This document shows, piece after piece, positions 2 to 62,858 of a DNA stretch of 64,000 bases. Location of the stretch: positions 11,385 to 75,384 of the forward strand of contig CAVYSE010000020.1 in the NCBI GenBank assembly GCA_963771075.1. Direction: 5' to 3'. A program made the position numbers and the translations under genes. Below the pieces are notes generated by a model. That model did not search any database and was not told the DNA's origin. It saw only the letters and a list, made by a program, of their open reading frames with translations. Each line of letters begins with the position of its first letter. The stretch's first letter is position 1. Source of the stretch: a candidate division FCPU426 bacterium. Lineage in GTDB: Bacteria; Oederibacteriota; Muellerivitia; Muellerivitales; Muellerivitaceae.

Positions 2-2803
2 TTGAATCATTTCTCCGATTTAAGGTTGACGGGCGGGAACGGCTGGTCGGGCACGGGGGGAAGCGTCCAGGTTTCCATCGGCGCCCTGGACCTGGCGGAC
101 TCGGGTTCGGAATTGAGCGTGCAGGGAGGTTTCGGCCCCGCAAACGGGTCCGCGGACGTCACGATCGGCGCCCTGACCGGCGCGGGGGTGCTTTCCATCT
201 CCAGCAGTGGACAGAGCGGCCTGCAAATCGCCAGCGGGGATTTTGCGGGGGTGATCGGGGGCGACTCGGGTATGGAAAAGACCGGCCCGGGTGCCCTGAC
301 CCTGACGGGCGCCTGCACCTACGCGGGCCCCACCACCCTCACCGGGGGAGTCCTCAATGTCCAGGGGGACAACAACCTGGGCGATAGCGGCCAGTTGCTA
401 TTCAACGGGGGCACCCTCCAAGCCGGGGCCGGTTTCGCCACCACCCAGACCGCATCCATCAATGCCCCCCTGGGCACCGTGGACCTGAACGGCAACTCGG
501 TCACCTGGAACGGAACAATCGGCGGAACAGGAACCCTGGCGGTGGACAACAGCGCTTTTCTTGTAAGCAACCGGCTTTATTTGAACAATCCCAATACCTA
601 TTCGGGGGGAACGAGCGTTGCCTGGTGTGAACTTTGGGTATCCAGCGATTCGGCCTTGGGCGCCAATACCGGTTCCCTGAGCCTGAATGACGCTTACCTA
701 TCGGCGACGAACAATATCGGTTTTAACGCCTCCAGGAACCTGAACCTGATTGCTTCGGGTTTCCTGGACCCCGAGGGCTTCCAACTCACCTGGAACGGCG
801 TGATCAGCGGTTCCGGAGGACTGGGAATCAATGACCTGAGCGGTTCCACGACGGGCTGGGTTCTTTTGACGAACAACAATACCTATACGGGCATTACCAG
901 TGTTTTTTCCGGTACCGGCTTGGCCCTCGCCGGCCATGGGACCCTGGGCACCGGGAACCTGATCAACGACGGCTGGGTGGATTTCAGCCAGACCAACGCC
1001 TCGGCCGTTTCAGGAACTTCCGTAACCGTGTGCGGCATCTTTGGTTATGGAAATCTTAACCTGGGACAAATCGATCTGGTGACGGGAACGAACAACTCCA
1101 ACGGCCAAATAGGCGGTGTCATCGCCGACGGCGGCATCGCCGGGGGCGTGGGGGCTTCCCTCACCAAGGTGGGTTCGGGCTCCCTGACCTTGACAGGGGC
1201 CAACACCTATAGCGGGGGTACGGTCCTGCAGGACGGCATGATCCTGGCGGAAAACCAGGCGGCGCTGGGTACGGGGAATGTGGCCGTCAACGGGGGAACC
1301 CTCTTCGTCGGCAACCTTTTTTCCCTGAATATCAGCGGCCATTACACCCAAGCGGCCGCCGGCACCCTGCAATTGGCCTTGGGACCCTTGGGCCAGGACG
1401 ATACGCTCCGGGTTTCGGGCGCGGCCAGCTTGAACGGCACACTGTCCCTCGCCCCGGCCAGCGGTTTTACGGCCCAACCCGGGAATAGCTTCTTGCCGGT
1501 CACGGCGACTGGCGGGGTGGACGGGCGATTCACCAGCCTGGATAGCGATATCGGAGGCATCCGGTTTTATCCCCTCTACCAGCCGGATGACCTGATCCTG
1601 GAATGCCTTCCCGCCTCCTTCGCCTCCGTCGGCGTGACCCCGAACCAGCAGTCGGTCGGAGGAGGGTTGGACGGCCTTTACGGCAATTCCACTTATAACA
1701 ACCTGATGCAATTCTTGGGAACCCAAACCACGGCGCAATTGACGGGCGACATGGAAAAATTGAGTCCGGAGGGGTTGACCCCCCTCTTCCGCATGGCCTT
1801 CGCCTCCGAGGAAGTGCAGGGCCAGGCCATCAACGAACGCTTGGAAGACCTCCTGGGGTTGACCAGCATCTGGGGCAACGGCTACGCCCGGTACGGGGAA
1901 GAACCCGCCTTCGCCTCGACGATGTCGGCGGGCCAGGAAGCCTCGATCGCCCGTCGGGTGAGGGACGTGAACCGCCTGGGCGGATTTGTGAGCGGGCTGG
2001 GAAATTTTGGCACCGTCACCGGAAGCGGGGATGAGGCGGGTTATAGTTACTCCACAGGAGGGGTCCAGGCGGGCGTGGACTATTGGCTGAACTGCTCGCT
2101 GGTGGCCGGGGTGCTGGTGAGCTACGACACGCAGGGCACCCGTTCAGGAACCGCAGGCTCCGTCAGCGGCAGCGGTGAGCGGGCGGGGTTGTACGGCGGG
2201 TATAAGCAGGGGGTACTGCGCGTGATGGGGGAATTGGACGGCGGCGTGAACAATTACAGCACCCAGCGCCTGACCCTGGGCCCGGGCGGGGCCAATGCCA
2301 CCGCCACGGGTTCGCCCCAGGGGGAACAACTGGACGGAGAATTGGAAGTGGCCCTGGACCTGACCGGTTCGGGCCTGATCCTGTCGCCTTTTGCCTCGGG
2401 CCAATATGGGTACGTTCAAGTGAACGCCTTCCAGGAATCGGCCAACGCGCTTGTTGGCGAATCGTTCCCGACCCAGGGGCAATCGGACTTGGAAAGCCGG
2501 GTGGGGTTGAGGGCGGGGACAAGCTGGCCCCTGGGCCTTTTTAGCCTGGCACCTTCCATCAGCGCCGCATGGGAACATTTTTTTCAGGGTAATCAGGACC
2601 AACTCACGGCGAACTTCGGCGCCCCGGGCAGCGCCTTTACCGTGGCCGGCCCCGCGACAGGCACCGACGACATGGACCTGGCCGCCGAGTTGGAAGCCCA
2701 GGTCTCCCGGCAGGTCACCTTCTTCGCCCAGTTCGAGGGCAAGGTGGGATTGGCGAATGTCGATTCGAAGGACATAACCGGCGGGGTGAATTGGGGTTTC
2801 TAA
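2..2803 (+). CDS. Classical (type Va) autotransporter, 5' partial. Passenger with beta-helix-like Gly/Asn/Thr-rich repeats plus C-terminal autotransporter beta-barrel.
   Basis: The ORF runs off the window start. It contains repetitive GGxL/NGG passenger motifs. The C-terminal ~270 aa have alternating hydrophobic residues and end in GVNWGF, an aromatic terminal residue typical of autotransporter barrels. It is clearly paralogous to the C-terminal half of the next gene (e.g. MEKLSPEGLTPLF...AINERLEDLLGLTS shared). Confidence 0.85.
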   Translation: MNHFSDLRLTGGNGWSGTGGSVQVSIGALDLADSGSELSVQGGFGPANGSADVTIGALTGAGVLSISSSGQSGLQIASGDFAGVIGGDSGMEKTGPGALTLTGACTYAGPTTLTGGVLNVQGDNNLGDSGQLLFNGGTLQAGAGFATTQTASINAPLGTVDLNGNSVTWNGTIGGTGTLAVDNSAFLVSNRLYLNNPNTYSGGTSVAWCELWVSSDSALGANTGSLSLNDAYLSATNNIGFNASRNLNLIASGFLDPEGFQLTWNGVISGSGGLGINDLSGSTTGWVLLTNNNTYTGITSVFSGTGLALAGHGTLGTGNLINDGWVDFSQTNASAVSGTSVTVCGIFGYGNLNLGQIDLVTGTNNSNGQIGGVIADGGIAGGVGASLTKVGSGSLTLTGANTYSGGTVLQDGMILAENQAALGTGNVAVNGGTLFVGNLFSLNISGHYTQAAAGTLQLALGPLGQDDTLRVSGAASLNGTLSLAPASGFTAQPGNSFLPVTATGGVDGRFTSLDSDIGGIRFYPLYQPDDLILECLPASFASVGVTPNQQSVGGGLDGLYGNSTYNNLMQFLGTQTTAQLTGDMEKLSPEGLTPLFRMAFASEEVQGQAINERLEDLLGLTSIWGNGYARYGEEPAFASTMSAGQEASIARRVRDVNRLGGFVSGLGNFGTVTGSGDEAGYSYSTGGVQAGVDYWLNCSLVAGVLVSYDTQGTRSGTAGSVSGSGERAGLYGGYKQGVLRVMGELDGGVNNYSTQRLTLGPGGANATATGSPQGEQLDGELEVALDLTGSGLILSPFASGQYGYVQVNAFQESANALVGESFPTQGQSDLESRVGLRAGTSWPLGLFSLAPSISAAWEHFFQGNQDQLTANFGAPGSAFTVAGPATGTDDMDLAAELEAQVSRQVTFFAQFEGKVGLANVDSKDITGGVNWGF

Positions 2804-3189: not shown

Positions 3190-6100
3190 ATGAAAAACCT
3201 CTTTGGGATACCAGCGTTGAAAATCTCCGCGTTTGCGGTCGCGGCTCTTGGGTTCATCCTGGGTCCAGGGTTGGGTTGGACCCAATCGAATTACCAGATC
3301 ACTGACGCCAGCGACCTGGCCGCGGCCATCCCGGCCATCAACTCGGGCGCCGTTTCCTCCACCCTGACCTTCCAGGATTCCTTGATCAACCTTTCCACCC
3401 TGTCGGGCCCCCTGAGCGTGATCGGGTACGACGTCAACATCCAGGCCGCTCCGGCGGGCAACTATTTGAGCGTCTATAACGCCACTTTCGGGGCCACGGC
3501 CAGCCTCAACTCCACGGCCTTGGTGGCGGTCAGCGCCTCCAACCTGGTGAACTTATCCGGCGGCGGATATTTCGGGACGGACGGGTCGGGAAACGGCCTG
3601 GCGGGAAACGCGGACTCCCTGGGCGCGGGAAGCCTCGCCTTGTCCCCGGGAGCTTCGCTCAACCTGCAGGGTGGCAACGGCGATAGCGGAACGGGCACGG
3701 GCGTGGGCGGCGCCTCGGGGAGTTCCACCCTCTCGGTGGCCTCCATGCTTTCGATGGATTCCAGCTCGGTCGCGGTCGCGGGCGCGGGGGGCGGCTCGGG
3801 AAATGGGACCTTGGGTAACACGGAAGGTTCGGGCGGCGACGCCCTCGTGACCCTGGGGCCCCTCAGCGAAACCTCGGCCAGTTACCTGGGGAGTTCAACC
3901 GGAAATCTTTCCACCTTCACCCTCACGGGCGGCAATGGCGGCGGGGACAGCGCCCAGGGTAACGGGGGCAATGGGGGCGCGGCTTCCCTGAGCCTTTCCG
4001 GCCCGGCATCGGTGGATACAAGCACCGTGATTCTTACGGGAGGCAATGGCGGGTCGGTCAACGGATCGGCTATTGACGCCAACCTAGGCAACGGTGGCCA
4101 GGGCGGCGCGGCGGGCCTGATCCTGTCCGGTGGATTGTCCCTTCGGTCCGGCAGTGCCATCGTGACGGGCGGTAAGGGGGAAGCACCCAAAGTGGCGCGA
4201 ATATCGGGGGCGTTATCGGCGGCGCGGGCGGCGCGGGCGGCGATGCCGTTGTTTCCATCGGATCGGATGTGTCCCTCAGCGCGGCGAGCGGGGCCTCCAC
4301 CCTCGGGATCGCCGGAGGGAAGGGCGGCAACAACGTGAGTGAGGATTGGGGGGCCGGAGGCACGGGCGGCAGCGCTGTGCTATCGGTGGCGGGGATGGTT
4401 TCGGTGGATTCCAGCGCCATCCAGGTATCCGGCGGGTCGGCCGGCCAGGGAAACAACCAGACGGGATCGGCGGGAAGCCAGGGTGGGAACGCGACCGCGT
4501 CCCTGACCTCCTTGGTCATGACCTCCAACAGTTTCGCCGCTAATTCCGCTATCGGCACCCGGTCCAGTTTCTCGCTTGCCGGTGGGAATGGAGCGGTGGA
4601 ATTCGGCGATGGCAACGGGGGCAACGGGGGGCAGGCTCTCCTGACGCTTACCGGATCGGGCTCGGTGGATTCCAGCGACCTGGAAGTGGCGGGGGGCGGG
4701 GGCGGGTCTTACGACGGCTATGACAAATTGGGGGGCCCGGGGACCGGCGGCATTGCCGGTAACGGTGGGGATGGAACGGTTTCAGCAAGCTTGGGACTCA
4801 CCCTGACCGCGGCGAACCAATCCGCCACCTTGAGGGTGTCGGGCGGCGGGGGCGGAACCGGAAGCGAGGCGGGTAACGCGGTTCCGGGGGTGGGCGGTTC
4901 GGGGGGCACAGGGAGCCTGGAAGCCGGGCCGGTATCGATCGATTCCAGCACCCTCCAGGTCCTGGGCGGGGTGGGCGGCGCGGGGAACGGCCAAAGCGGC
5001 GTGACAGAAGGCATGGGCGGGGATTCGAACGCCATGGTCCAGGGGTCCCTGGTCCTGACCTCAAACCAGTATTTCACCCATTCCGGGGTCGGGGCTTCCT
5101 CCAATTTGATCCTGGGCGGGGGTTCCGGGGGAAGTGACCTGAACCTGGGCCAGGGGGGGACGGCGGTTCGGCGGCCCTGACGGTTTCGGGCGGTGTATCG
5201 TTGGATTCCAGCAACGTGACGGTCTCGGGCGGTTTGGGCGGCACGGCGGTAAATGGCAATGGCGGCAACGGCGGTGGGGCCTCGGTTTCCCTCGCGTCAG
5301 GCTTGTCCCTCACGGCGGGATATGGCGCCTCCAACCTCGATGTGCTCGGAGCCAATGGCGGAACGAACAACGGCACCGCCGCAGGCGTGGGCGGGTCGGG
5401 TGGCTCGGCGGAACTGTGGGTTTCGGGCCCAGTCTCGGCGGATTCCAGCTCGATCAACCTTTCCGGCGGTAATGGCGCTTATGGCGTGGGCTCAACCCAA
5501 GGCCCGGGGGGTGATGCATCCATGAACGTTGGATCATTGGTAGTCACTTCCAACCAATATTTCGGGGGCCTCGGCAGGGGAGTTCAATCGGGAATCACGG
5601 TCACTGGCGGCGAGGGCGGTTTTACAAATCAGGGCAACGCGGGCGCCGGGGGAGGCGAATTTCACCTCGTCCAGGGCGGTGTCGGTGGATTCGGGGCTCG
5701 TCCAAATCACCGGCGGGGCCGGAGGCAGCTCCACGAACGGAGCGGGGGGCCAAGGCGGCGGCAGCTCCATGACGGTTGGGACCGATTTGAATTTGACCGG
5801 GACCCACCAGGGTTCGGTCTTGACCCTATTGGGTGGGGCTGGAGGCAACGGGGCCGATGGCGGCGGTACGACCTTGACGGTCGGGGGCAACCTCTTATCG
5901 GATTCCAGCGTCGGAATGATCACCGGTGGCGCGGGCGGCAATGCGGCCAGCGGGAACGGCGGCAATGGGGGCAACGCGGCGGTCCTCGCCGGTGGGAATT
6001 TAAACCTGACTTCAACCATTAGCGATGACACTTTCACATTGGCGGGTGGGAAGGGGGGGCAGTCGAATGCCTCCGGCGTGGGGGGGATGGGCGGCAACGC

Positions 6101-52273: not shown

Positions 52274-52320
52274 ATTTCGGATGTTGAGGTTACCATCATT
52301 CGTTTAGAGAACAGTTATTT

Positions 52321-52566
52321 TCAAGAAGGAACGAAAACCTCGAGGGGAACCCTCTTGTCGACCTTTCCGTTCTTGCAACGGTAGGTGATCTCCTTGGTGG
52401 CTGGGTCGTAATCCAACAATGTGACGATTTTGAGTTCGGTCTTTTCCGCCACACTGACCGAGCCCGATAGACCCCTTAAAGGAACCTGTTGATCCTTGGC
52501 GTATTTCACGACAACCTTTTTACCTAACCGGCACACGACCAGCTCGACGGGGATTAATTTTTCCAT
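52321..52566 (-). CDS. Small hypothetical protein (81 aa)
   Basis: ORF only. Downstream of, and probably co-transcribed with, the HPr gene on the minus strand. Confidence 0.4.
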   Translation of the reverse strand: MEKLIPVELVVCRLGKKVVVKYAKDQQVPLRGLSGSVSVAEKTELKIVTLLDYDPATKEITYRCKNGKVDKRVPLEVFVPS

Positions 52567-52698
52567 TTTGTTCTTTTCCTCGCTTTCCTTGGCGTTACCC
52601 GCCCCAAAAACACCCGACGAACTATCCTGCGGTCCTGGCTATATCCAAAGCTTGATAAAAGGAAAAACAAATGAAATAGAACGAATGTTTTATATCGG

Positions 52699-52971
52699 CT
52701 AATCCCTTTCCCCGAATTTATTCAAAAATAAGGCCTGGATCGCCATGGAGGCCTCCGAGGCGTCATCCCCCTCAAAGACGAGCGTCAGTTCTTGCCCATA
52801 GCCGGCGGCAAGGGTCATCAAATTGATCAGGCTCTTGGCGTTCAGGCTTCCGCTGTTCCTTCGAATCAAGATGCGGCATTTGTATTGGGAGGTCGCCTTG
52901 ACGAACGTAGCGGCGGCGCGGATATGAAGACCGAGGCGGTTTAAGACTTTGACAGTTTTGGTGATTTCCAC
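52699..52971 (-). CDS. ptsH: HPr-family phosphocarrier protein
   Basis: NRLGLHIRAAATFVK (GLHxRPA-like active-site His region) and ..SLNAKSLINLMTLAAGYGQELTLVFEGDD.., matching the HPr fold signature. Confidence 0.8.
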   Translation of the reverse strand: MEITKTVKVLNRLGLHIRAAATFVKATSQYKCRILIRRNSGSLNAKSLINLMTLAAGYGQELTLVFEGDDASEASMAIQALFLNKFGERD

Positions 52972-53359
52972 GGCGTACCCTCGTTAGAAATGTTTTTGGA
53001 ATAACGGATTGGATAATATTTTGAAAGAAGGTCCTGGCGAGAACAACCGCCAGGAAAGCGAATCGACGGATCAATTATAAATCCATAAGAAGAACCGCCA
53101 GAAAAAATATTTTTGAACCTGCCATTTTAGTTGCAGTTTTTCCGCAACTTTTTTGGCGCGGCTATTTGTGGTGGAAAATACTTTTTCGTGCCACAGGAGC
53201 TGGGGTTGAATAGGACGAACGGGAGTTAAGGTTTGGCACAACTTATGTTGTGACGAATTAGTAATCATGCAAAGAGCTGTATCTGCAGTGCGTGTGGATT
53301 TATCGAGTTGTTCCGTGAGGATGGGAAGTCTTTTCGGCCATCCGCCTACCTTGGATTCC

Positions 53360-53553
53360 AATAAAATTACAAATCCAGCGCTCTCACCAACGACCGGGTG
53401 ATTGGGTTCAACGCGAATGACGCTACGGTCACGGTTTACACCTCGGCTTATAGCACGACGATCAGCGATCTCGAGGAAAGGGATGTGAATTCGTTGAACC
53501 ATCTCTATGTAGTCAATTTGGGGAACAACCGGATCGTGAAATACACGCTCTAG
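53360..53553 (+). pseudogene. Orphan NHL-repeat remnant (…DVNSLNHLYVVNLGNNRIVKYTL*) without a start codon
   Basis: An open frame follows a TAA at ~53357. It matches the NHL consensus (YVaD.gNnRI.kf). An upstream out-of-frame segment (MQRAVSAVRVDLSS...) may be a further decayed part. Confidence 0.3.
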
Positions 53554-53636
53554 ATTGTTTCGACCGGGCACGATAAACCGAACTGACGCTTTAAAAACCT
53601 AGTATTCAACCATATGAAAATTTTATTTGGTGGGGC

Positions 53637-53668
53637 TTGACATTTATTTGGGAAGGGGAGTAATGTTC
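53637..53668 (+). promoter_or_regulatory. Candidate sigma-70 promoter: TTGACA, 18 nt spacer, TAATGT
   Basis: CTTGACATTTATTTGGGAAGGGGAGTAATGTTCC lies immediately upstream of RNA-element copy 1. Confidence 0.4.
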
Positions 53669-53679
53669 CAACATCAAAC

Positions 53680-53812
53680 GCGAGGCTTTAAGGTCCAACT
53701 TGCCCCGGCGTTTCCCGAAAGGGAAGAACAGGGTGCTAAAGCGGTTAAGAGTTTAAGAGATTCTATCTAAACCCGATCCGCCCAAAGTGGACCGGGTTTT
53801 TTGTTTTACACC
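53680..53812 (+). ncRNA. Copy 1 of a tandem triplicated structured RNA-like element (conserved core plus intrinsic terminator)
   Basis: GCGAGGCTTTA...AACTTGCCCCGGCG-[TTCCC-GAAA-GGGAA hairpin]-ACAGGGTGCTAAAGCGGT...then a hairpin CCCGATCC/GGACCGGG followed by TTTTTTGTTTT. Confidence 0.5.
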
Positions 53813-53888
53813 GAAAAACCCTTTAAAAACTAAGTTTTGCCCCACTGGTTCCTTGAACTGCGGGGAAGGCAAACATTGTTTGCCACCG

Positions 53889-54030
53889 GCGAGGCTTTAT
53901 TAACCTACTTGCCCCGGCCGGCTTTCGTTGGATGTTTCAACGGAGGGAACAGGGACTAAAGCGGTGGAAGATTATTGGAACAACCATAATCCCAAACCGC
54001 TGAAGCAAACGGTCTGGGATTTTTTTATTC
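53889..54030 (+). ncRNA. Copy 2 of the element
   Basis: GCGAGGCTTTA...ACTTGCCCCGGCCGG-[CGTTG...CAACG hairpin]-ACAGGGACTAAAGCGGT...then a hairpin CCCAAACCG/CGGTCTGGG followed by ATTTTTTTATT. Confidence 0.5.
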
Positions 54031-54220
54031 CTAGAAGTTTCGATGTGGGGAGGATTGAGCAGTAAAAAGTTCAATTTTGTACGGCGGGATTTAACAGGCG
54101 GTGAAAAAGCCTTCAACCGGCTTTTTCTTTCTAGTGTGCGGGTCGCAGGCGACCCGTCCTAGCCCCTGGCTTTTACGGAACGTTACCAATCGCGGTTTTG
54201 GATGGTAACCCCCTGAAAGC

Positions 54221-54340
54221 ACCAACTTGCCCCGGCCGGATTCGTTCCAGCTTTTGGAATGGACAAACAGGGAGCTAAAGCGGTATCGCGATGAAGACTT
54301 TTTCATCCCGGCCCGCTTAAGCAGTGGGGCCGGGTTTATG
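54221..54340 (+). ncRNA. Copy 3 of the element, 60 nt upstream of the porin gene. Its terminator has a weak U-tract, which would suit a regulated leader.
   Basis: AACTTGCCCCGGCCGG-[TTCCA-GCTTT-TGGAA hairpin]-ACAGGGAGCTAAAGCGGT...then a hairpin CCCGGCCC/GGGCCGGG followed by TTTATGG. The core GGCCGG is complementary to CCGGCC in the terminator 5' arm, a possible antiterminator pairing. Confidence 0.5.
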
Positions 54341-54399
54341 GCCCCGGGTGAACTGGACACCTTAAAAACCCATTAAATTTTTTAAAAAAGGGGCTAAAA

Positions 54400-55881
54400 A
54401 TGAAAAAGTTATTCGCTTATTGGTTGGTATTACTGGCGGGTTTATTCCTGACGACCGCCAGGGTTGGCGCGCAGGAACCATCTTCGGTTGGGAATTCGAA
54501 GCAGGATGCTCCTTCGACGGATACCCCGGCGGCGGTCTCGGCTTCGGATATCGAAGCCCTGAACAACCGGCTCAACGCCCTGGAAAAGGGATCGGTCGTG
54601 TTGTCCACCGAGCATAATTACCTCGATATTGGCACCCAAAAGGGCGATATCGTCTTTAAGATCGGCGCGGTAGTGCAGGGGGATTACCGGTCCTATTTCT
54701 ACCCGGCTTCCAGTTATGACGACAACCTGCCGATTGGGGCTGCGGGCGGCGGTGTCACGAATTTTGAGGAGGGGGCGACGGCGGCTTCGGTCAACAAATC
54801 CAGCAGTACCTTCCTGGACCGCAAGGTCCGGTTGGACCTGGTTGCCCTCTTTGACCAGACTGTGGGTTTGCGATACCAGGCCGAATTTGGCGCCACGGGT
54901 TACGCCATCCAGGACGCCTACGCCTTCGTAAAGGCGGACCCGGCTTTCCAATTCCAACTGGGAAAGTTCAAGGTGCCTATCGGCCTGGAACGCCTGCAAA
55001 ACGACACGGATACTCTTTTTGCCGAGCGCGCCCTGCCCACCGACCTGGTCCCCAACCGTGACCTGGGCGGCCTTATCGGCGGGTCGGTTCATAATTACGC
55101 CCTCTACGCGGTGGCCTTGACCAACGGGACGCCCGACAATTACACGCCCAACAACGCCGACGACCAAAGCCTGACCGGCGGTAAGGAATTATCGGGAAGG
55201 GTTTTCCTGACGCCTTTCCAACCCACCGATTCCTTTCTCAAGAACCTTGGGGTTGGAATCTCGGGGTCCTGGGCCTGGAACGTGAGTTGGAACAGCAACG
55301 CCTATCCCAATTATTTCGTCACCTCCCTGGGCCAACAGCAATTCTTCGCCTATCGGACGGGCGTTTCCCCCCAGGGCGATTTTTACCACCTATCCCCCCA
55401 GGGCTACTTTTATAACGGTCCCTTCGGATTGTTGGGAGAGTATGTCCAGTCCACCCAGAACGTCGGGACCTCCGCCAAGACTTCCGTGAGCCTCAATAAC
55501 CAGGCCTTCCTGTTGCAGGCTTCATGGGTTATTGGCGGGAGGGCTTCCTACCAAGGCGCGGTCGCGGATAATGACTTGGATCTTTCCAAGGGCCGTTGGG
55601 GTGCTTTGGAGGTGGGCTTTCGGGTGCACCAATTGACCATCGACCCGAATGCCTTTAGCGCCACGGAAGCCTCGGATGTGGCGGCCACCAATTCGGCCCA
55701 GCAGGCCACGGCTTACGGCGCGGGTTTGAACTGGATTTTCGACCCCCATTTCAAGCTGGTCTTCGATTGGGAGGAAACGGATTTCGTGGAAGGGACCCAG
55801 GTGACACCGAACATTACCGGCACCGTTACGACCCTGCATCCCGAGGATGTTTTCACCATCCGGGCCCAGGCCAACATTTAA
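54400..55881 (+). CDS. OprO/OprP-family anion-selective porin
   Basis: Signal peptide [25 protein letters not shown]. ~470 aa beta-barrel with the Porin_O_P family layout. First gene of the sulfate-uptake cluster. Confidence 0.75.
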
Positions 55882-55898
55882 ATAATAAGGAGAAAAAC

Positions 55899-56927
55899 AT
55901 GAAAAAAATAAATCTTAGTCTCGGATTGCTGATGGGTCTTACCGCCGCTTCCTGGGTTTATGCCCAGGAGGCCCCAGTCGGGAAAACGGGGGGCGCGGTT
56001 AGGATTCTCAACGTGTCCTACGACCCTACGAGGGAATTTTACGCGGATTACGACAAGGTTTTCGCCGGCTACTGGAAAAAGAAAACGGGGCAGGATGTGA
56101 CCGTGGACCTTTCCAACGGGGGATCGGGCAAGCAGGCCCGGGCCATTATTGACGGCCTGGAAGCCGATGTGGCGACTTTGGGGCTTTCGGGCGATATCGA
56201 CGCCATCGCGGCCAAAGCCCAGCTGCTTCCCGACGATTGGGAAAGCCGGTTGCCCGACCATAGCGCCCCCTATACCTCCACCATTGTTCTTTTGGTGCGC
56301 AAGGGGAACCCCAAGGCCATTAAGGATTGGGACGACCTGGTGAAACCCGGGGTGGCCGTGATCACTCCGAACCCGAAAACTTCCGGCGGCGGCCGATGGA
56401 ACTTTCTGGCCGCCTGGGGATGGGCTCTTTCCAAATATGGAACGGAGGATAAAGCCAGGGAATTTGTAGGCAAGATCTACAAGAATGTCCCGGTGTTGGA
56501 TTCAGGCGCGCGGGGTTCCACCACCACTTTTGCTGAAAGGGGCCTGGGAGACGTTTTGATCGCTTGGGAAAACGAGGCCTACCTGGCCGTCAACCAGTTG
56601 GGGAAGGACCAATTCGAGATTGTTTATCCATCCTCCAGCATTTTGGCCGAACCTTCAGTGGCCTGGGTGGACAAGAACGCCGCGAAACACGGTACGACCG
56701 AGGTGGCGGAGGCCTACCTGAAATATCTCTACAACCCCGTGGGGCAGGACGTCATAGCCCGCAACTACTACCGGCCCCGGTCTAAAAAGGTCGAGGAGAA
56801 ATACCGCAGCCAGTTTCCCGTGATCAAGCTCTTTACCGTCAACAAGGTGTTCGGTGGTTGGAAAAAAGCCCAGCCCGCCTATTTCAACGACGGCGGGGTC
56901 TTTGACCAAATCTACCAACCTAAATGA
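55899..56927 (+). CDS. sbp: Sulfate/thiosulfate ABC transporter periplasmic binding protein
   Basis: ATG at 55899 after AAGGAG. Signal peptide. Strong Sbp/CysP family similarity (e.g. ..WENEAYLA..). Confidence 0.85.
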
Positions 56928-57017
56928 ACCAGTTGGCAGTCCACAGTTCGCAGTTCGCAGTCAAGCGGGTAACACCCTATTCCCCATGGAGTCTTTATCG
57001 AAGGGGTTATTTTCGGG

Positions 57018-57048
57018 AAGCCGGTTCATTGGGGGCCGGCTTTTCCCC
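57018..57048 (+). terminator. Hairpin AAGCCGG-(11 nt)-CCGGCTT followed by TTTCCCC; possible attenuator between sbp and the HPr-like gene
   Basis: Read from the sequence. 7 bp stem with a short, imperfect U-tract. Confidence 0.3.
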
Positions 57049-57070
57049 AAACCAAAAAGGGTTGGAATCC

Positions 57071-57349
57071 ATGGCCATCATCGAATCCATACCGGTATTA
57101 AACCGCTTAGGGCTTCATCTGCGGGCTGGGGCCGAATTGGTCAGGACTTGTTCCCGGTTCCAATGCCAGGTGAGGGTGGGGCATGGCGGAAGGTCGGCCA
57201 ACGCGAAAAGCCTGATCCAACTCTTAACCCTCGGCGCCCTTTATGGTACGGTACTGGAGTTTTCGGCCCAGGGCGAGGACGCACCGGAGGCCATCAGGGC
57301 GATCCAAAAGTTATTGAAATCTTGGGAGGAGTTGGAAATTGACGAATAA
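57071..57349 (+). CDS. HPr-like phosphocarrier-family protein embedded in the sulfate transporter operon
   Basis: MAIIESIPVLNRLGLHLRAGAELV...GRSANAKSLIQLLTLGALYGTVLEFSAQGEDAPEAIRAIQKLL aligns along its whole length to canonical HPr (GLHTRPA...GKSASAKSLFKLQTLGL..G..V.ISAEGEDE). Confidence 0.75.
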   Translation: MAIIESIPVLNRLGLHLRAGAELVRTCSRFQCQVRVGHGGRSANAKSLIQLLTLGALYGTVLEFSAQGEDAPEAIRAIQKLLKSWEELEIDE

Positions 57350-57658
57350 CAAATCATCTTTCACCACCAAACACTTCGGCCCGCAACCGAAGTGTCGATG
57401 ACCAAGGCACCAAGAACAACAAAGCCAATTAGATTAGGAACAACCGAAACAAAGGAATTGGGTTAGAACCGATAACAAAACTAAGATGTAATATTAACCA
57501 CTAAGGCTCAAAGACACCAAGTAAAGCAAAAGGTTTGGATTTACTTCGTTTTTCTTCTGCCAATCTAACGAAGTTCTTGGTGCCTTGGTGTCTTGGTGGT
57601 GAAAAAGAGAGTTAAGTGACTTGGCGTCTTGGTGGTGAAAAATTTTAGGTGGTATTAA

Positions 57659-58486
57659 ATGAATTCTAAATCTCCTGGTGTACTCCCGGGGTTCCGTCTC
57701 TCCATGGGCTACACCCTTTTTTACCTGGGCCTCATTGTTTTGATCCCCCTGGGGGCGATGGTATTAAAAACCACCCAGCTCACCTGGGTACAGTTCCTGG
57801 CGACGGTCCTGAGTCCCCGCGTACTGGCTTCTTTTCGGCTGACTTTCGGGTGTTCCATCATTGGGGCGGCCATCAATTCGGTTTTCGGGGCCGTCGTGGC
57901 CTGGGTCCTGGTCCGCTATACCTTTCCCGGGAAACGGCTTTTCGACGCCCTAGTGGACCTTCCTTTCGCCTTGCCCACGGCCGTGGCCGGCATCACCCTG
58001 ACAGAACTCTATTCCCCCCAAGGTTGGATCGGCCGTTGGCTGATTCCCCTGGGTATCAAGGTGGCCTATACCCCCCTGGGTGTGGCGGTGGCCTTGACCT
58101 TTATAGGCCTTCCTTTCGTGGTCCGGACCCTTCAACCGGTCCTTGAGACGATGGATAAGGATATGGAGGAAGCGGCGGTCAGTTTAGGGGCGAACCGCTT
58201 TACGATCATTACCAAGGTGATTTTGCCCAGTCTCGTACCTGCCTGGATCACCGGGTTTTCCCTCGCATTCGCCAGGGCGGTGGGGGAGTACGGTTCGGTC
58301 GTGTTTATCTCGGGAAACATGCCCATGAAGACCGAAATTACGCCCTTACTTATCATCTCAAAACTGGAACAATACGATTACGCCGGGGCCACGGCCCTGG
58401 GGGTGGTGATGCTGGTGATTTCATTTGCCATGCTGTTGACGGTGAATTGGCTTCAGGCCAAAACAGGCAAGCATCGAATCCATTAA
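57659..58486 (+). CDS. cysT: Sulfate ABC transporter permease CysT
   Basis: Six transmembrane segments with an ABC transmembrane type-1 EAA-like loop. Adjacent to cysW and cysA. Confidence 0.85.
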   Translation: MNSKSPGVLPGFRLSMGYTLFYLGLIVLIPLGAMVLKTTQLTWVQFLATVLSPRVLASFRLTFGCSIIGAAINSVFGAVVAWVLVRYTFPGKRLFDALVDLPFALPTAVAGITLTELYSPQGWIGRWLIPLGIKVAYTPLGVAVALTFIGLPFVVRTLQPVLETMDKDMEEAAVSLGANRFTIITKVILPSLVPAWITGFSLAFARAVGEYGSVVFISGNMPMKTEITPLLIISKLEQYDYAGATALGVVMLVISFAMLLTVNWLQAKTGKHRIH

Positions 58487-58569
58487 CATTAAAAGAGGAA
58501 GATTTGACTCGAGAAACGATTATTGTTATTTCTAAAGGAAATCGCGCCTCGCTGGACCCCAATCGGGGT

Positions 58570-59418
58570 ATGACCGAGCCGGGATGGGTGAAGTTTACCC
58601 TGATCGGGATCTCCCTCCTGTTTTTAGGGCTTTTTTTGGTGATACCTTTGGCGGAAGTGTTTGTTTCGGCGCTCCAGAAGGGGATCGGCTTTTATTTCGA
58701 CGCGATCCGGGACCCGGCCGCCCTTTCGGCCTTGAGGTTGACTCTCCTCACCGCGTTTTTCTCCGTTTTTTTCAATTTGATCTTCGGGTTGGCTTCAGCC
58801 TGGGCCATCACGCGGTTCGAATTTCCCGGCAAAAACCTGCTTATCACCTTGATCGACTTGCCTTTCACCGTCTCCCCGGTCGTGTCTGGCCTGATCTACG
58901 TGCTGCTCTTCGGTTTACAAGGCTACCTTGGGCCCTGGGTCTTGTCCCACGGAATCCACATTATCTTCGCAGCGCCCGGTATCATCCTGGCCACGATTTT
59001 CGTGACCTTTCCCTTCGTGTCTAGGGAACTGATTCCCTTGATGCAGGAACTGGGCTCGGAAGAGGAACAAGCGGCTTTGGTTTTGGGTGCGAACGGATGG
59101 CAAATTTTTTGGCGGGTAACCTTGCCCAATATCCAGTGGGGCCTTCTCTATGGGGTCATTCTTTGTAACGCCAGGGCAATGGGGGAATTTGGGGCGGTAT
59201 CGGTGGTTTCGGGCCACATCCGGGGACTGACCAACACCCTGCCCTTGCATGTGGAAATTCTCTATAACGAATACAATTTTACGGCCGCTTTCGCAGTCGC
59301 TTCCTTATTGACCTTTTTGGCGCTGGTGACCCTGGTCGCCAAGGCGATCGTTGGCGCCCGCACCGTGCAAGAGAGGGAAATCCTTCCCATCTCCCATGAA
59401 AGCGAGCCTGCCCTATGA
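58570..59418 (+). CDS. cysW: Sulfate ABC transporter permease CysW
   Basis: ATG at 58570 (MTEPGWVKFTLIG...). Paralogous to CysT. The stop overlaps the cysA start (ATGA). Confidence 0.85.
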   Translation: MTEPGWVKFTLIGISLLFLGLFLVIPLAEVFVSALQKGIGFYFDAIRDPAALSALRLTLLTAFFSVFFNLIFGLASAWAITRFEFPGKNLLITLIDLPFTVSPVVSGLIYVLLFGLQGYLGPWVLSHGIHIIFAAPGIILATIFVTFPFVSRELIPLMQELGSEEEQAALVLGANGWQIFWRVTLPNIQWGLLYGVILCNARAMGEFGAVSVVSGHIRGLTNTLPLHVEILYNEYNFTAAFAVASLLTFLALVTLVAKAIVGARTVQEREILPISHESEPAL

Positions 59419-60458
59419 GTATCGAAGTCCGGGGGATCTCAAAAACCTTTAACGGTTTTCAAGCCGTGCGGGATGTCAGCCTGAAACTGGAAAGCGGGTC
59501 CCTGACCGCCCTGCTGGGCCCCTCGGGCTCGGGGAAAAGCACCCTGCTTCGCATGATCGCCGGGTTGGAAACCCCCAATTCGGGCGAGATCCACTTGACC
59601 GGCCGGGAAGCCACCTATATTTCAGCTAAGGAACGCAATGTCGGGTTTGTTTTCCAGCATTACGCCCTTTTCAAGCACATGACCATCTTCGAAAACATCG
59701 CCTTCGGTTTAAGGGTCCGTAAATATGCGGAGAAGGACATCAAGGACAGGGTTTTCGAACTCCTCAGTCTTATCCAACTACAGGGCCTGGAAAACCGGTA
59801 TCCATCCCAGCTTTCGGGAGGCCAGCGCCAAAGGGTGGCGGTCGCCCGCGCCCTTGCGCCTCGGCCGGAGGTTTTGCTATTGGACGAGCCCTTTGGGGCT
59901 TTGGACGCCAAGGTACGGGAAGAATTAAGGGAGTGGATTTTAAAGCTCCACGAGGAAACCAACGTGACGACCCTTTTCGTGACTCACGACCAAAATGAGG
60001 CGCTGGAAGTGGCGGGCCGAATTCTGATTATGAACCAGGGAAGGATTGAGCAAGATGGCACTCCGCTTGAAATCTTCGACCAGCCAGCCACCCATTTCAT
60101 CGCCCAGTTCGTGGGGGAGACCAACTATATTGACACGAAAATTAGCGAGAAGGGTTTGGCGGTGTGGGGGCCTTTCCGATTCATGGTTACCCCCTTCTTT
60201 AAATTGGGGCAGAAAGTGCGTATTTATTTTCGCCCCAATGACGTTTACATGACCGCTCAATTTGAGACCCTGCAGGTGAAGGCCAAGGTGCTTTCTATCC
60301 GTTTCAAGGGAACGATGATGGAATACAAACTCGACGTGGGGGAAGAAAAGCAAATTATCGCTCAGGTACCCAAGGGCGTGGCCTTGGCCAGCGGGTTTTC
60401 CGAGGGGGCGGAGGTATTCGCCGCCATTACCGCCTTCCACGTTTTTCCGCTGGATTAG
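59415..60458 (+). CDS. cysA: Sulfate/thiosulfate import ATP-binding protein CysA
   Basis: Walker A GPSGSGKST, ABC signature LSGGQRQRVA, Walker B LLLDEPFGALD. C-terminal TOBE-like domain. Confidence 0.9.
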   Translation: MSIEVRGISKTFNGFQAVRDVSLKLESGSLTALLGPSGSGKSTLLRMIAGLETPNSGEIHLTGREATYISAKERNVGFVFQHYALFKHMTIFENIAFGLRVRKYAEKDIKDRVFELLSLIQLQGLENRYPSQLSGGQRQRVAVARALAPRPEVLLLDEPFGALDAKVREELREWILKLHEETNVTTLFVTHDQNEALEVAGRILIMNQGRIEQDGTPLEIFDQPATHFIAQFVGETNYIDTKISEKGLAVWGPFRFMVTPFFKLGQKVRIYFRPNDVYMTAQFETLQVKAKVLSIRFKGTMMEYKLDVGEEKQIIAQVPKGVALASGFSEGAEVFAAITAFHVFPLD

Positions 60459-60591
60459 GAATTCTTGATAACCCCTCCACTGGGGGTTGTGTTAGTCCTT
60501 AAAAATGTGTAATTTCATAGGCCTTTAACGTAGAGGCTGGACTTTCCCGGGCGAAAAACCCAGGTTTAACCAAGACTATTATGGGGAGAAT

Positions 60592-61509
60592 TTGTTGAGC
60601 CAGCAGGAACCAAAATCCTTTTCGCACCTGAAACAACTTGAAGCGGAGAGCCTGTTCATCATCCGGGAAGTCGTTTCGGAATTCAAAAAACCCGTCATGC
60701 TCTATTCGGTGGGGAAAGATTCTTCCGTCATGCTTCGCCTGGCCCAAAAGGCCTTCCACCCGGGCAAGATTCCCTTTCCCCTGATGCACGTGGACACAAG
60801 CTACAAGTTCCCCGAGATGTACCAGTTCCGGGACAAATTGATCGCCGACCTGGGCGCCAAGCTTCTGGTGGAACGCAACGAGGATGCTATCTCGGCCGGT
60901 TCCAGTCCCTTCAAATACGGGGTGGATAAATGCTGCGCGCTGTTGAAGACCCAGGGACTGTTGGACGCCCTCACCAAGCACGGTTTTGACGCTGCCTTCG
61001 GCGGGGCGAGGCGGGAAGAGGAAAAATCCCGGGCGAAGGAAAGGGTTTATTCATTCCGGGATTCCTTCGGCCAGTGGGACCCCAAGAACCAGCGGCCCGA
61101 ACTTTGGGACCTCTATAACTCCAAGATCAACGAGGGGGAATCCATTAGGGTTTTCCCCCTTTCCAATTGGACTGAACTGGATATTTGGCTCTATATCGAG
61201 ATGGAAAAGATTCCCGTGGTACCCATTTACTTTACCCACGAACGAAAGATCATCAAACGCAAGCAACTCCTGATTCCTTGGGCCCCCCATATCCCCCTTT
61301 TGCCGGGAGACGAAGTGAAACAGATGAGGGTTAGGTTCCGGTCCCTGGGATGTATGTCCTGCACGGGTGCCATCGAGTCCGAAGCCTCCAGCTTGCGGGA
61401 TATCATCGAGGACCTGGTTTTGACCCGAAAGAGCGAGCGGGAAAATCGCATTATCGATCACGGCTCGGACAGTTCCATGGAGCAAAAGAAAAAAGAAGGA
61501 TACTTCTAA
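60592..61509 (+). CDS. cysD: Sulfate adenylyltransferase subunit 2 CysD
   Basis: PAPS-reductase-fold PP-loop SVGKDSSV and the CysD-specific C-terminus. TTG start. Confidence 0.9.
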
Positions 61510-61588
61510 AAGCAGTCGGCAGCCGACATCTCTAAAGACGTGAATGTGAAAAATTGTTTGTTAACGGTTAACTAAATTGGGAGTCGTA

Positions 61589-62858
61589 ATGACTATCGAC
61601 GAGAAATCGGAAATCAGCTACGCGAACATGGGCCTCCTGCGGTTTTCCACCGCGGGTTCGGTGGATGACGGCAAGTCCACCTTGATCGGGCGGCTGCTTT
61701 TTGACTCCAAAAGCGTCTTTGAGGACCAATTGGAGGCCATTCGCAAGACCACCTCCAAAAAGGGAGGGGAAGAGATCGACCTGGCTCTCATCACGGACGG
61801 CCTTGCCGCCGAACGGGAGCAGGGTATCACGATCGACGTGGCCTACCGCTATTTCGCGACTCCCAAGCGCAAGTTTATCATCGCCGACACTCCCGGCCAC
61901 GAACAATACACCCGCAACATGGTCACGGGAGCCTCCACCTCCAACCTGGCGATCATCCTGCTGGATGCCCGTAACGGGGTTATGACCCAATCGAGGCGCC
62001 ACGGTTTTATCGCAAACCTTTTGGGCATCCCCCATCTGGTGGTCGCCATCAATAAGATGGACCTAGTGGATTATTCCCAGGAGGTATTCAACCGCATCCG
62101 CGCCGAGTTCGGGGCCTTCACGAAGGAAATTGGCGCGCCCGAGCCTATGATTATTCCCATTTCCGCGCTCAAGGGCGACAATGTGGTGGAAAAGAGCGGC
62201 GCCATGCCTTGGTACCAAGGGCCCGCGCTTTTGCATTATTTGGAAACCGTGGAGATTAACCGCGACCTGAACCAGGAGGATTTCCGCTTCGCGGTGCAGA
62301 CCGTGATCCGGCCCAACCTGGATTACCGGGGTTTCGCTGGCCGGATCGGCTCGGGCCGAATTCGCCGGGGGGATCGGGTGGTCGTTCTGCCCTCGGGGAT
62401 CGAGACATCCGTCAGGGCTATCGACACTTTTGAGGGGGAAATCGAGGAAGCTTTCGCGCCCCTTTGCGTGACCCTGCGCTTGAAAGACGAGGTGGATTTG
62501 TCCCGAGGGGACATGCTCGTCCGCCCCGACAACCGGCCCCAAAGCGGGCCCCTCTTTACCGCCGATCTCTGCTGGATGGTGCAAGAGCCCTTGAACCTCA
62601 GGAAAAAGTATTCCCTCAAGCACACCACCCAGACTGTGAAAGCCATGGTGGTGGACATCGAGTATCGGACCAACATCAACACATTGGATAAGGAGAAAAG
62701 TGGATGAACTTGGGATGAACGATATCGCCCGGGTCAAGGTCCAATCGCTCAAACCCCTCTATTTTGACCCTTACAAGAAGAACCGCAACACGGGCAATTT
62801 CATTCTGATCGATGAGCTGTCTAATAACACGGTGGCGGCAGGCATGATCGTCGGGTGA
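61589..62858 (+). CDS. cysN: Sulfate adenylyltransferase subunit 1 CysN (GTPase), frameshifted near 62697
   Basis: G1 [10 protein letters not shown]3 DTPGHEQY, G4 NKMD. Frame 2 changes to frame 0 at an A4 run (gagAAAAgtgg). Removing one A yields ..[42 protein letters not shown], the canonical CysN C-terminus. Confidence 0.85.

Follow-up and report, generated by a model that had tools for sequence, protein, structure and literature searches.

What could be the role of the three paralogous RNA elements, each having a hairpin and a U-tract on its 3' side, that are encoded at 53676-54341 on the plus strand of the window (the 64-kb stretch of DNA from a candidate division FCPU426 bacterium that is analysed here), 5' of the genes porin-sbp-HPr-cysTWA-cysDN? 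A preliminary description of this DNA considered, as one of two possibilities, a cis-acting, terminator-bearing regulatory RNA with three copies in the leader of an operon for sulfur assimilation, and this view is supported by the structure of the RNA, by the family to which it belongs and by its gene linkage. We consider it highly likely that the leader responds to a ligand by switching between terminator and antiterminator structures, and on balance we favor a more specific scenario, under which three complete riboswitches are arranged in series on one long mRNA leader (830 bp), each being a transcription-termination OFF switch responsive to S-adenosylmethionine (SAM).

Are there indeed three copies, and where do they begin and end? 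The 12-mer ACTTGCCCCGGC (at 53698, 53907 and 54225) and the block CAGGG(N1-2)CTAAAGCGG (at 53729, 53950 and 54268) have exact matches in the 64-kb window only in the three copies, the remaining near-matches to both blocks carrying two or three mismatches and being about as frequent as expected by chance; those at 24397 and 60541 were read as candidate extra copies and found to be unrelated, and the covariance model described below detects just three copies in the window. The sequence that separates the start codon of the porin gene (54400) from the poorly coding stretch on its 5' side contains no credible open reading frame (ORF). Thus, the three-copy architecture in a gene-free stretch of 830 bp is real, both conserved blocks occurring exactly three times and only here, and so are the GC hairpin and T-run after each copy (53769-53807, 53988-54026 and, with TTTATGG as a weak tract, 54307-54341) and the GAAA-capped hairpin of copy 1. 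Two boundaries had to be redrawn. Copy 3, which had been taken to begin at 54221, starts at 54082 with a 5' segment, CGGCGGGATTTAA (54082-54094), that is common to copies 1 and 2; and the extra small hairpins that were thought to separate the copies are, between copies 2 and 3, a 126-nt insertion within copy 3, because CGGCGGGATTTAA precedes this insertion and the collinear orthologue in the related locus L014 lacks it. The revised extents are 53678-53807, 53886-54026 and 54082-54341.

Does this RNA belong to a known family? A search of Rfam 15, as the preliminary description had proposed, finds no matching family at the gathering or curated threshold in the whole window and 18 related loci, and at E<=10 the leader region and two single aptamers give chance hits only (for example, to miRNA, CRISPR-DR and twister-sister families; 11-17 bits). 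The other comparison that it had proposed, a covariance model built from the copies and run on relatives, yields further copies, covariation and, at more than 100 loci besides the window, linkage to sulfur and methionine genes. Scanning one genome per GTDB species with an exact pattern produced 60 matches in 43 genome loci, often two to four per locus, in metagenome-assembled genomes (MAGs) labelled FCPU426, Elusimicrobia/Elusimicrobiota or Firestonebacteria and, in a few cases, Acidobacteria or Proteobacteria; the covariance model, built from 53 of the exact matches, finds 97 copies in these 43 loci and another 199 copies in 80 metagenome loci that were collected with a looser pattern. The loci L044-L123 derive from peat and bog samples. 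A profile search over all loci gave 317 hits in 253 distinct contexts, with 196 unique full-length aptamers, so there are about 300 further copies beyond the window, distributed over metagenome contigs and FCPU426, Elusimicrobiota and Firestonebacteria MAGs. No description of the motif was found in the literature on Elusimicrobia riboswitches, sulfur riboswitch candidates, SAM-VII, or cysteine, sulfide and homocysteine riboswitches, where sul1 was the only published orphan motif linked to sulfate transporters that was found.

The consensus of the 196 unique copies, to which the column counts below refer, reads from 5' to 3' as P1, GAGGC-UUU-AA, a turn that accepts 3-140 nt, CCAAC-UUG-CCCCG, the second strand of P1, a hairpin, GAACA, and GGGNG-CUAAA-GCGG. 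P1, of 4-5 bp, is formed by the nucleotides just 5' of GAGG and those just 3' of CCCCG, for example ACGC/GCGU, CCGGC/GCCGG, UGGC/GCCA, AGGC/GCCU or CGGU/ACCG, and three to four of its pairs change on both sides: pair 3:34 is GC in 122 copies and CG in 74, pair 2:35 is CG in 107, AU in 39 and UA in 6, and pair 5:32 is CG in 172, UA in 15 and UG in 9. The covariation score of P1 was reached by none of 500 shuffles in each of two alignments, and sliding the register lowered the paired fraction from 93-95 % to 23-49 %. In lower P2, GCCCC pairs with GGG(N)GC, with C29:G60 replaced by U:A in 6 unique copies and a bulge-migration variant that creates U28:A62 in 20 copies, and the junction pair 31:57 (the G after CCCC with the C of AACAGGG) occurs as G:C, A:U, U:A and C:G. 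The hairpin P3 (5-73 nt) is hypervariable, forming at least 4 bp in 177 of the 184 distinct segments (median z of -3.9 against shuffles), commonly with GNRA loops. Of the 74 columns of the profile, 21 are invariant and numerous others nearly so. Because the 3' strand of P1 lies within the P2 helix, the fold is an H-type pseudoknot, with base pairing between the 3' tail and the loop of the P1 hairpin, and the covariation supports it.

Could the elements be a nonfunctional repeat or the remnant of a mobile element, akin to repetitive extragenic palindromes or miniature inverted-repeat elements, multiplied by local duplication? In favor of this possibility, the copies, three in number, are in tandem, and close relatives are polymorphic for insertions, as is apparent when copy 1 of L019 is compared with the window. 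Nevertheless, conservation with compensatory changes across MAGs labelled as several phyla, co-direction with the downstream gene, a coherent gene set, and the lack of linked terminal inverted repeats or transposases all speak against this possibility, and we regard it as effectively excluded by the covariation and the gene linkage.

The closing helix GCTTTA/TAAAGC of the preliminary description, which was also part of our first model as a Watson-Crick helix GCUUUA/UAAAGC, did not survive the comparison: it shows no compensatory change and has a mismatch in 13 % of the copies at the C:G position, C10 being replaced by A 22 times and U11 by G 14 times, and the change of G69 to A leaving C10 in place in five of six cases. 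GCUUUA appears to be better read as a U-rich Hoogsteen third strand of a triplex than as a Watson-Crick partner, a reading that would explain why covariation is absent here. Elsewhere in this part of the RNA, columns 15 and 21 (53900 and 53906 in copy 2), which are the A that follows UUUA and the initial A in CCAAC, vary jointly (AA in 179 copies, UU in 6), which suggests a non-Watson-Crick contact across the turn; copy 2 of the window is in the U/U state, UUUAU..CCUAC.

How are the copies arranged? They come in three distinguishable classes. Class 1 has P1 ACGC/GCGU and a short GNRA hairpin, class 2 has CGGC/GCCG, and class 3 has CGGU or GGCGGGAUUU in P1, often with insertions. The metagenome loci comprise 53 single, 52 double and 13 triple arrays; the multi-copy orders are 12 (35 cases), 1? 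(19), 123 (9) and 13 (8), with class 1 almost always first, and the window array is 1-2-3. Among metagenome contigs and FCPU426-labelled MAGs, arrays of two or three copies with a fixed subtype order are the usual state. The classes are alike in terminator strength, and the terminator of the first copy is not distinctive. Copies that seemed to lack the 5' GGCGAGGCUUUAA, once set apart as a 'type B', do not constitute a separate type, longer upstream reads showing GGCGAGGCUUUAA further upstream, beyond structured insertions before CCAAC. The parts of the three copies in the window, with all coordinates checked against the sequence, are as follows.

53678..53744, plus strand: aptamer of copy 1 (class 1; covariance model hit of 83.7 bits). 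P1, ACGC (53678-81) with GCGT (53708-11); L1 with the putative third strand, GAGGCTTTAA (53682-91); turn, 53692-94; P2 descending strand, CCAACTTGCCCCG (53695-707); P3 hairpin with GAAA loop, 53712-26; linker AACA, 53727-30; P2 ascending strand, GGGTGCTAAAGCGG (53731-44).

53745..53807, plus strand: expression platform of copy 1. Spacer hairpin, 53745-68; terminator stem-loop, 53769-99; U-run, 53797-807; alternative antiterminator, GCGG (53741-44) with CCGC of the terminator (53778-81).

53886..53964, plus strand: aptamer of copy 2 (class 2, GGGA-CU subtype; 69.9 bits). P1, CCGGC (53886-90) with GCCGG (53917-21); L1, GAGGCTTTAT (53891-900); descending strand, CCTACTTGCCCCG (53904-16); P3, 53922-47; linker, 53948-51; ascending strand, GGGACTAAAGCGG (53952-64).

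53965..54026, plus strand: expression platform of copy 2. Spacer hairpin, GATTATTGG..CCATAATC; terminator, 53988-54021, with CCGC at 53997-54000; U-run, 54020-26.

54082..54283, plus strand: aptamer of copy 3 (class 3), aligned with the insertion-free copies of L014 and L024. P1, CGGC (54082-85) with GCCG (54235-38); L1, GGGATTTAA (54086-94); structured insertion at the turn, 126 nt (54095-54220); descending strand, ACCAACTTGCCCCG (54221-34); P3, 54239-65; linker, 54266-69; ascending strand, GGGAGCTAAAGCGG (54270-83).

54284..54348, plus strand: expression platform of copy 3. Spacer hairpin, GATGAAG..TTTTTCATC; terminator-like stem, 54307-34, with CCGC at 54313-16; weak U-tract TTTATGG, 54335-41; antiterminator, GCTAAAGCGG (54274-83) with CCGCTTAAGC (54313-22).

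Copy 2 has orthologues in L014, L019, L022, L017 and L038. In copy 3 the covariance model hit, of 43.3 bits, covers the 3' part only. The insertion in the turn of the aptamer, of about 110-126 nt with three hairpins, starting with CAGGCGG and ending with CCCCUG..CUGAAA, is found not only in the window (54095-54220) but also in L019 (about 4830-4940, minus strand) and L012 (about 1870-1980, plus strand); its presence varies between close relatives, the near-identical L019 having a related insertion also in copy 1, which has none in the window.

How is such an aptamer connected to gene expression? Downstream sequence of sufficient length is available for 219 distinct copies; in 198 of them, a terminator of -10 kcal/mol or better with a U-run lies 30-95 nt past the aptamer. 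When the 3' arm of the terminator is withheld, GCGG of the invariant CUAAAGCGG pairs into the 5' arm in the minimum free energy (MFE) fold of 191 of these 198 copies; 193 of 214 terminator 5' halves contain a stretch of 4 nt or more that is Watson-Crick complementary to AAAGCGG, compared with a mean of 48 for permuted 7-mers, the commonest 4-mer in these halves being CCGC (188 of 214); and in many copies the 3' arm of the terminator repeats AAAGCGG, which amounts to a strand-exchange design. AAAGCGG paired with CCGC(UUU) is a conserved competitor of the terminator, that is, an antiterminator. In the window, this pairing of GCGG with CCGC is recovered in the MFE fold of copy 1 without the 3' arm (the terminator being -17.0 kcal/mol), and the antiterminator AGCGGT/ACCGCT appears in the MFE fold of copy 2, the terminator of which was also called by a terminator scan, reported on the minus strand; in copy 3, the terminator-like stem is -22.3 kcal/mol and its CCGC is the partner of GCGG. 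The antiterminator GGCCGG/CCGGCC that had been suggested from copy 3 does not hold generally, as GCCGG forms the 3' strand of P1, where it pairs with the 5' CCGGC, with strong covariation. Given that the 3' strand of the aptamer is shared with the antiterminator, the ligand-bound state would be the terminated one, and the switch would be OFF. A conserved aptamer, a 3' strand shared with the antiterminator, a position in the 5' leader and co-orientation with the gene, the general features of transcription-attenuating riboswitches, are all present here, whereas occlusion of the Shine-Dalgarno (SD) sequence, the platform typical of SAM-V and of most SAM-II riboswitches, is not the arrangement found, with intrinsic terminators in 198 of the 219 copies. 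The minority that lack a U-run (L015, L040 and L007/L009) may work differently, those of L015 and L040, for example, on translation.

A small subgroup without an ordinary terminator downstream has CUAAAACGG in place of CUAAAGCGG (AAAACGG variants: L119 4931-5018, L099 519-610, L077 5441-5526, L057 2145-2239 and L030 6595-6686); in these copies, a compensatory change was looked for in either proposed partner, and none was found. As to the end of copy 3 (54326-54348), GGCCCC (54340-45) can pair with GGGGCC of the 3' arm of the stem, and CCCCGGGTG..CTGGACACC is kept in L024; this last copy may use an additional or a different mechanism.

Do the three copies share one transcript? In many related arrays, the next copy starts roughly 5-30 nt past the preceding U-run, which leaves no room for a promoter, so that the copies in those arrays must share a transcript, and these small distances in relatives suggest a single promoter and transcript for the window leader as well. 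Its putative start is the following element.

53637..53666, plus strand: promoter-like element read from the sequence, TTGACA (53637-42), an 18-nt spacer and TAATGT (53661-66), ending 11 nt before P1 of copy 1.

The hexamer pair TTGACA..TAATGT of the preliminary description is present as described, but a consensus promoter scan made no call, because the -10 hexamer matches at 3 of 6 positions only. Related first copies have the -10-like TATAGT or TATGCT about 10-14 nt before P1, ahead of class-1 copies, and TTGACT-17-TAATAAT is found in L011 and L028. The opposite possibility, already raised as 'three small RNAs', is that the copies encode small RNAs acting in trans, which have individual promoters and terminators and happen to be clustered 5' of sulfur genes. 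Each copy does end in a strong terminator; copy 1 is preceded by a promoter-like element, and ahead of copies 2 and 3 the window gaps between a U-run and the next P1 (about 78 and 55 nt) could accommodate promoters. Moreover, terminated SAM riboswitch transcripts can act in trans, as do SreA and SreB in Listeria. This scenario nevertheless appears highly improbable in view of the spacing of roughly 5-30 nt in many arrays, the location of the copies 20-70 nt upstream of, and co-oriented with, a start codon with an SD-like sequence, the single copies that directly precede ORFs in Elusimicrobiota MAGs, and an invariant 3' strand that is organised to compete with the terminator. Two features of the surrounding DNA may be mentioned here. 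Directly 5' of P1 of copy 2 (53869-53885) there is a perfect 7-bp hairpin, GGCAAAC-AUU-GUUUGCC, of which the GUUUGCCA part is kept before the orthologous copies in L014, L022 and L036, the hairpin itself not being conserved. The 1.3 kb or so upstream of the leader (52274-53571) contain no clean long ORF on either strand; the only ORF is a GTG-initiated one of 166 aa on the minus strand without a Pfam hit, the plus strand reads ..VVNLGNNRIVKYTL*, and the segment may be a decayed gene.

What, then, is the ligand? An answer is suggested by the strand order of the present RNA, which is that of SAM-II and SAM-V. In SAM-V (RF01826; metY and bhmT of Pelagibacter; PDB 6FZ0), a 4-bp P1 is followed by the third strand, a 3-nt turn and the P2 descending strand, which contains A18 U19 U20 G21 and continues as the P1 descending strand; the 3' half consists of a stem-loop, an A-rich linker (A40-A42) that makes A-minor contacts, and the P2 ascending strand ..C46 U47 A48 A49 A50.. 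(PMC6061858). The adenine of SAM pairs with U47 and stacks between G21 and A48, and the triples U9.A48:U20 and U10.A49:U19 frame the sulfonium (PMC6061858); the equivalent positions of SAM-II (RF00521; metX; PDB 2QWY) are U10-U12, U21-G22 and U44-A46 (PMC3303485). When the consensus is set against the SAM-V contact table, the same letters are present, UUU in L1, UUG in the descending strand and CUAAA in the ascending strand, matching U8-U10, U19-G21 and C46-A50 of SAM-V and, as UUU, UUG and UAA, the three sites of SAM-II. Columns 12-13 (UU), 24-27 (UUGC), 65-68 (UAAA) and 70-72 (CGG) are invariant in all 196 copies, and even the exceptions have parallels: column 11 is U in 182 copies and G in 14, a G that stands at the same place in bhmT SAM-V (AGUUG), and the change of C10 to A recalls A7 of metY, with A before UUU. 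It thus appears that the invariant UUU, UUG and CUAAA correspond to the nucleotides that hold the adenine and the sulfonium in SAM-II and SAM-V, with a U.A-U major-groove triplex that would enclose SAM, and that SAM is probably the ligand. The remark in the preliminary description that the RNA could not be matched to a familiar class therefore holds to the extent that Rfam offers no match, but not with respect to topology and the invariant core: we class the RNA as a structural variant within the SAM-II/SAM-V kind rather than a categorically new mechanism. Given the lack of an Rfam SAM-II or SAM-V match, the homology rests on topology and 11 core nucleotides.

Position 7 of the third strand changes together with the variants of lower P2 (21 of 21 and 5 of 5), which fits a groove contact, although shared ancestry could also explain it. 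Near the presumed pocket, about one quarter of the class-1 copies show a linked change at three sites, in which GCCCC becomes GCUCC, GGGNGC becomes G(C/U)GAGC and GAGG loses its A (A7); the sites include L002 2853, L017 3014/3885, L023 77/3832, L025 5420, L026 1318, L030 6894, L038 2125 and L042 825, among others. Another variant has GCCUC with GAG-GC and GCGG replacing GAGG.

Under the riboswitch scenario, each unit would comprise an aptamer, an antiterminator and an intrinsic terminator, and all three would control the porin, sulfate ABC transporter and cysDN operon. With SAM bound, the 3' strand would be locked in the triplex, leaving CCGC(UUU) free for the terminator, and transcription would stop; when SAM is scarce, AAAGCGG would pair with CCGC(UUU), the antiterminator would break the terminator, and RNA polymerase would read on. 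With three switches in series, the read-through fractions would multiply, resulting in a tight and steep (pseudo-cooperative) response. That independent riboswitches for the same ligand can be placed in series, with a steeper response as the result, is known (PMC9481103); the unusual features here are the routine use of such arrays and their fixed order.

Which genes would be controlled in this manner?

54400..62707, plus strand: regulated operon, by Pfam hits an OprO/P-type porin (Porin_O_P), a sulfate-type substrate-binding protein (SBP), an HPr-domain protein, two CysT/W-like permeases and a CysA-like ABC ATPase, followed in the 3' part by a PAPS_reduct-domain protein (CysD-like) and a GTP_EFTU-domain protein (CysN-like).

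The Pfam hits bear out the gene identities given in the preliminary description, and the porin-SBP order also follows the arrays in L014, L017, L019, L024, L029, L034, L040 and L041. Every copy examined is co-oriented with the downstream ORF, the start codon typically lying 76-130 nt past the aptamer, often with an SD-like sequence; a crude longest-frame test put 105 of 127 arrays on the same strand, and the 20 'opposite' cases reflect antisense shadows of genes that can be recognised on the same strand. Across two independent sets, the downstream genes include those for sulfate-binding proteins (13 and 15) and for Cys_Met_Meta_PP proteins, i.e., homocysteine synthase (MetY; O-acetylhomoserine sulfhydrylase; 9 and 10), along with permeases and ABC ATPases, Porin_O_P (11), 1-Cys peroxiredoxins (7), DsrE-like proteins, CysK-like PALP enzymes, MetW, MetX-like hydrolases, ExbB-ExbD-TonB with TonB-dependent receptors, DUF3034 and small proteins without a family. 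The copies thus lie upstream of genes of methionine and SAM metabolism (MetY, MetX-like, MetW, CysK-like); no AhcY, MetE or MetF signature was found downstream of the copies. This set of sulfur-acquisition and methionine-synthesis genes is compatible with SAM as a signal of sulfur sufficiency, for which the control of sulfur metabolism genes by the S-box in Firmicutes is a precedent (PMC6061858). A family of about 105-120 aa (..KV.VQLT.EAL.DFK.IQ..) without a Pfam match is repeatedly the first gene after two-copy arrays (L016 3757-4101, L017 3194-3625 and L030 7002-7328 on the minus strand; L036 3164-3523 and L051 1826-2164 on the plus strand).

Several observations weigh against the scenario of three SAM-responsive terminator switches. 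The Rfam models of SAM-II, SAM-II long-loop and SAM-V (RF00521, RF01726 and RF01826) do not hit single aptamers even at E<=10, and lower P2 is longer and bulged, and L1 longer, than in SAM-II and SAM-V. The triplex core is invariant and hence beyond the reach of covariation, so that a plain Watson-Crick helix GCUUUA/UAAAGC is still admissible. The U-tract of copy 3 is poor in the window, and the L014 orthologue has none; the gaps before copies 2 and 3 of the window have room for promoters. Finally, no MetK signature was seen downstream of any copy in the 123 loci, and the gene set consists mostly of sulfate uptake, peroxiredoxin and TonB genes.

The predominance of sulfate uptake and the lack of MetK imply that another ligand reporting sulfur status is possible. 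The cis-acting RNA would then be the same, but the ligand would not be SAM, or not for every subtype; candidates are S-adenosylhomocysteine, homocysteine, cysteine, adenosine phosphosulfate (APS) or its 3'-phosphorylated form (PAPS) and sulfide-derived compounds, or else classes 1, 2 and 3 might form a multi-input gate. Indeed, the genes, with sulfate uptake, an LsfA-like 1-Cys peroxiredoxin, DsrE-like proteins and TonB, resemble a sulfate-starvation regulon more closely than a SAM-cycle regulon, class 1 almost always comes first in multi-copy arrays, followed by class 2 or 3, and the correlated three-site change affects the flank of the presumed pocket. The ykkC and purine riboswitch scaffolds are known to change specificity with few substitutions. 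Against this possibility, the equivalents of the nucleotides that read the adenine and the sulfonium are invariant in all three classes, and MetY, MetX and MetW are typical targets of SAM-II and SAM-V (PMC6061858), in addition to the S-box precedent. All things considered, we regard a ligand other than SAM as rather unlikely. The narrower proposition that the three subtypes do not all sense SAM, and that at least one of them, such as class 1 with GCUCC/G(C/U)GAGC, reads another sulfur-status metabolite, strikes us as decidedly unlikely; if true, it would imply a natural three-input RNA logic gate over the sulfur-starvation regulon of candidate phyla, which could include the first riboswitch for a non-SAM sulfur metabolite.

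Is a small molecule required at all? The terminator/antiterminator design in itself needs none, and the pseudoknot could instead be bound by a sulfur-responsive RNA-binding protein, or by a tRNA, in the manner of the PyrR, TRAP or BglG-type attenuators; an HPr-domain ORF is located within the regulated operon, and multi-copy leaders could titrate a protein. Yet invariant columns (21 of 74) combined with a pseudoknot that covaries and a peripheral hairpin that is hypervariable are what a metabolite aptamer usually shows, the core matches a known SAM pocket, and no candidate RNA-binding protein is consistently linked to the arrays, all of which makes a protein- or tRNA-dependent attenuator improbable. 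The HPr-domain ORF is of interest in its own right: located between the SBP gene and the cysT-like gene (56924-57349, plus strand; PTS-HPr, E 2.4e-22), it places a phosphocarrier of the phosphotransferase system (PTS) inside a sulfate-transport operon, which is unexpected; in L014, L024, L034 and L041, porin-sbp is likewise followed by a third ORF of comparable size.

How does the present RNA, read as a SAM riboswitch, compare with known systems? With SAM-V, it further shares the linkage to metY and a 3' strand that is both a part of the aptamer and a regulatory element. The differences are that lower P2 has 5-6 G-C pairs with conserved bulges as opposed to 3 pairs, that L1 has 5 nt before UUU instead of 3, that there is an extra conserved upper part (CCAAC...GCGG), that the turn takes insertions of up to about 140 nt, for a size of 70-220 nt compared with about 50 nt, that an intrinsic terminator and antiterminator replace SD occlusion, and that the RNA occurs in ordered arrays of two or three, in different phyla, and is missed by the Rfam model. 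SAM-II likewise acts on genes for methionine biosynthesis, with SAM binding turning it OFF, and 44 tandem SAM-II pairs are known (PMC9481103), but it usually has a P1 of at least 6 bp and no stem-loop after P1, and is found mainly in proteobacteria (PMC3303485); its Rfam model gives no hit here, and its periphery and expression platform differ as those of SAM-V do. The SAM-I riboswitch (S-box) of Firmicutes is similarly a transcription-termination OFF switch for sulfur metabolism genes, in which SAM stabilises an anti-antiterminator (PMC6061858), but the present RNA has no sequence or covariance-model similarity to it. Arrays of two or three complete units of the same class, each with its own terminator, in front of one ORF recall the tandem pseudo-cooperative riboswitches (Sherlock et al., 2022; PMC9481103), from which a steeper, more digital response is expected and among which triplets are documented for c-di-GMP-I/II, FMN, glutamine, Moco, guanine and, in one case, SAM-I (PMC9481103); arrays are the exception there and common here, where the copies are distinguishable subtypes in a fixed 5'-to-3' order. 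The sul1 motif (Weinberg et al., 2017; PMC5737381), which is in Rfam, is also an orphan cis-regulatory RNA candidate 5' of a sulfate transporter and of sulfur- and methionine-related genes, but by its description it is a separate motif that serves predicted sulfate transporters of the sul1 class rather than ABC transporters (PMC5737381), and its Rfam model has no match in the window or the leader region at the curated threshold.

If SAM binding is confirmed, this RNA would be a deep-branching, structurally expanded member of the SAM-II/SAM-V pseudoknot superfamily, and one that acts by transcription termination rather than by control of translation. The ordered arrays of two or three copies offer a natural test bed for the effect of serial riboswitches on the shape of the dose-response curve. 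About 300 copies escape the current Rfam models, and these MAGs are accordingly under-annotated with respect to sulfur and methionine regulation. The lineages that carry the RNA, labelled FCPU426, Elusimicrobiota and Firestonebacteria, have barely been studied, and the presence of one RNA class 5' of genes for sulfate uptake, homocysteine synthesis, 1-Cys peroxiredoxin, DsrE-like proteins and TonB systems would provide a first handle on the regulation of sulfur acquisition in these uncultured bacteria.

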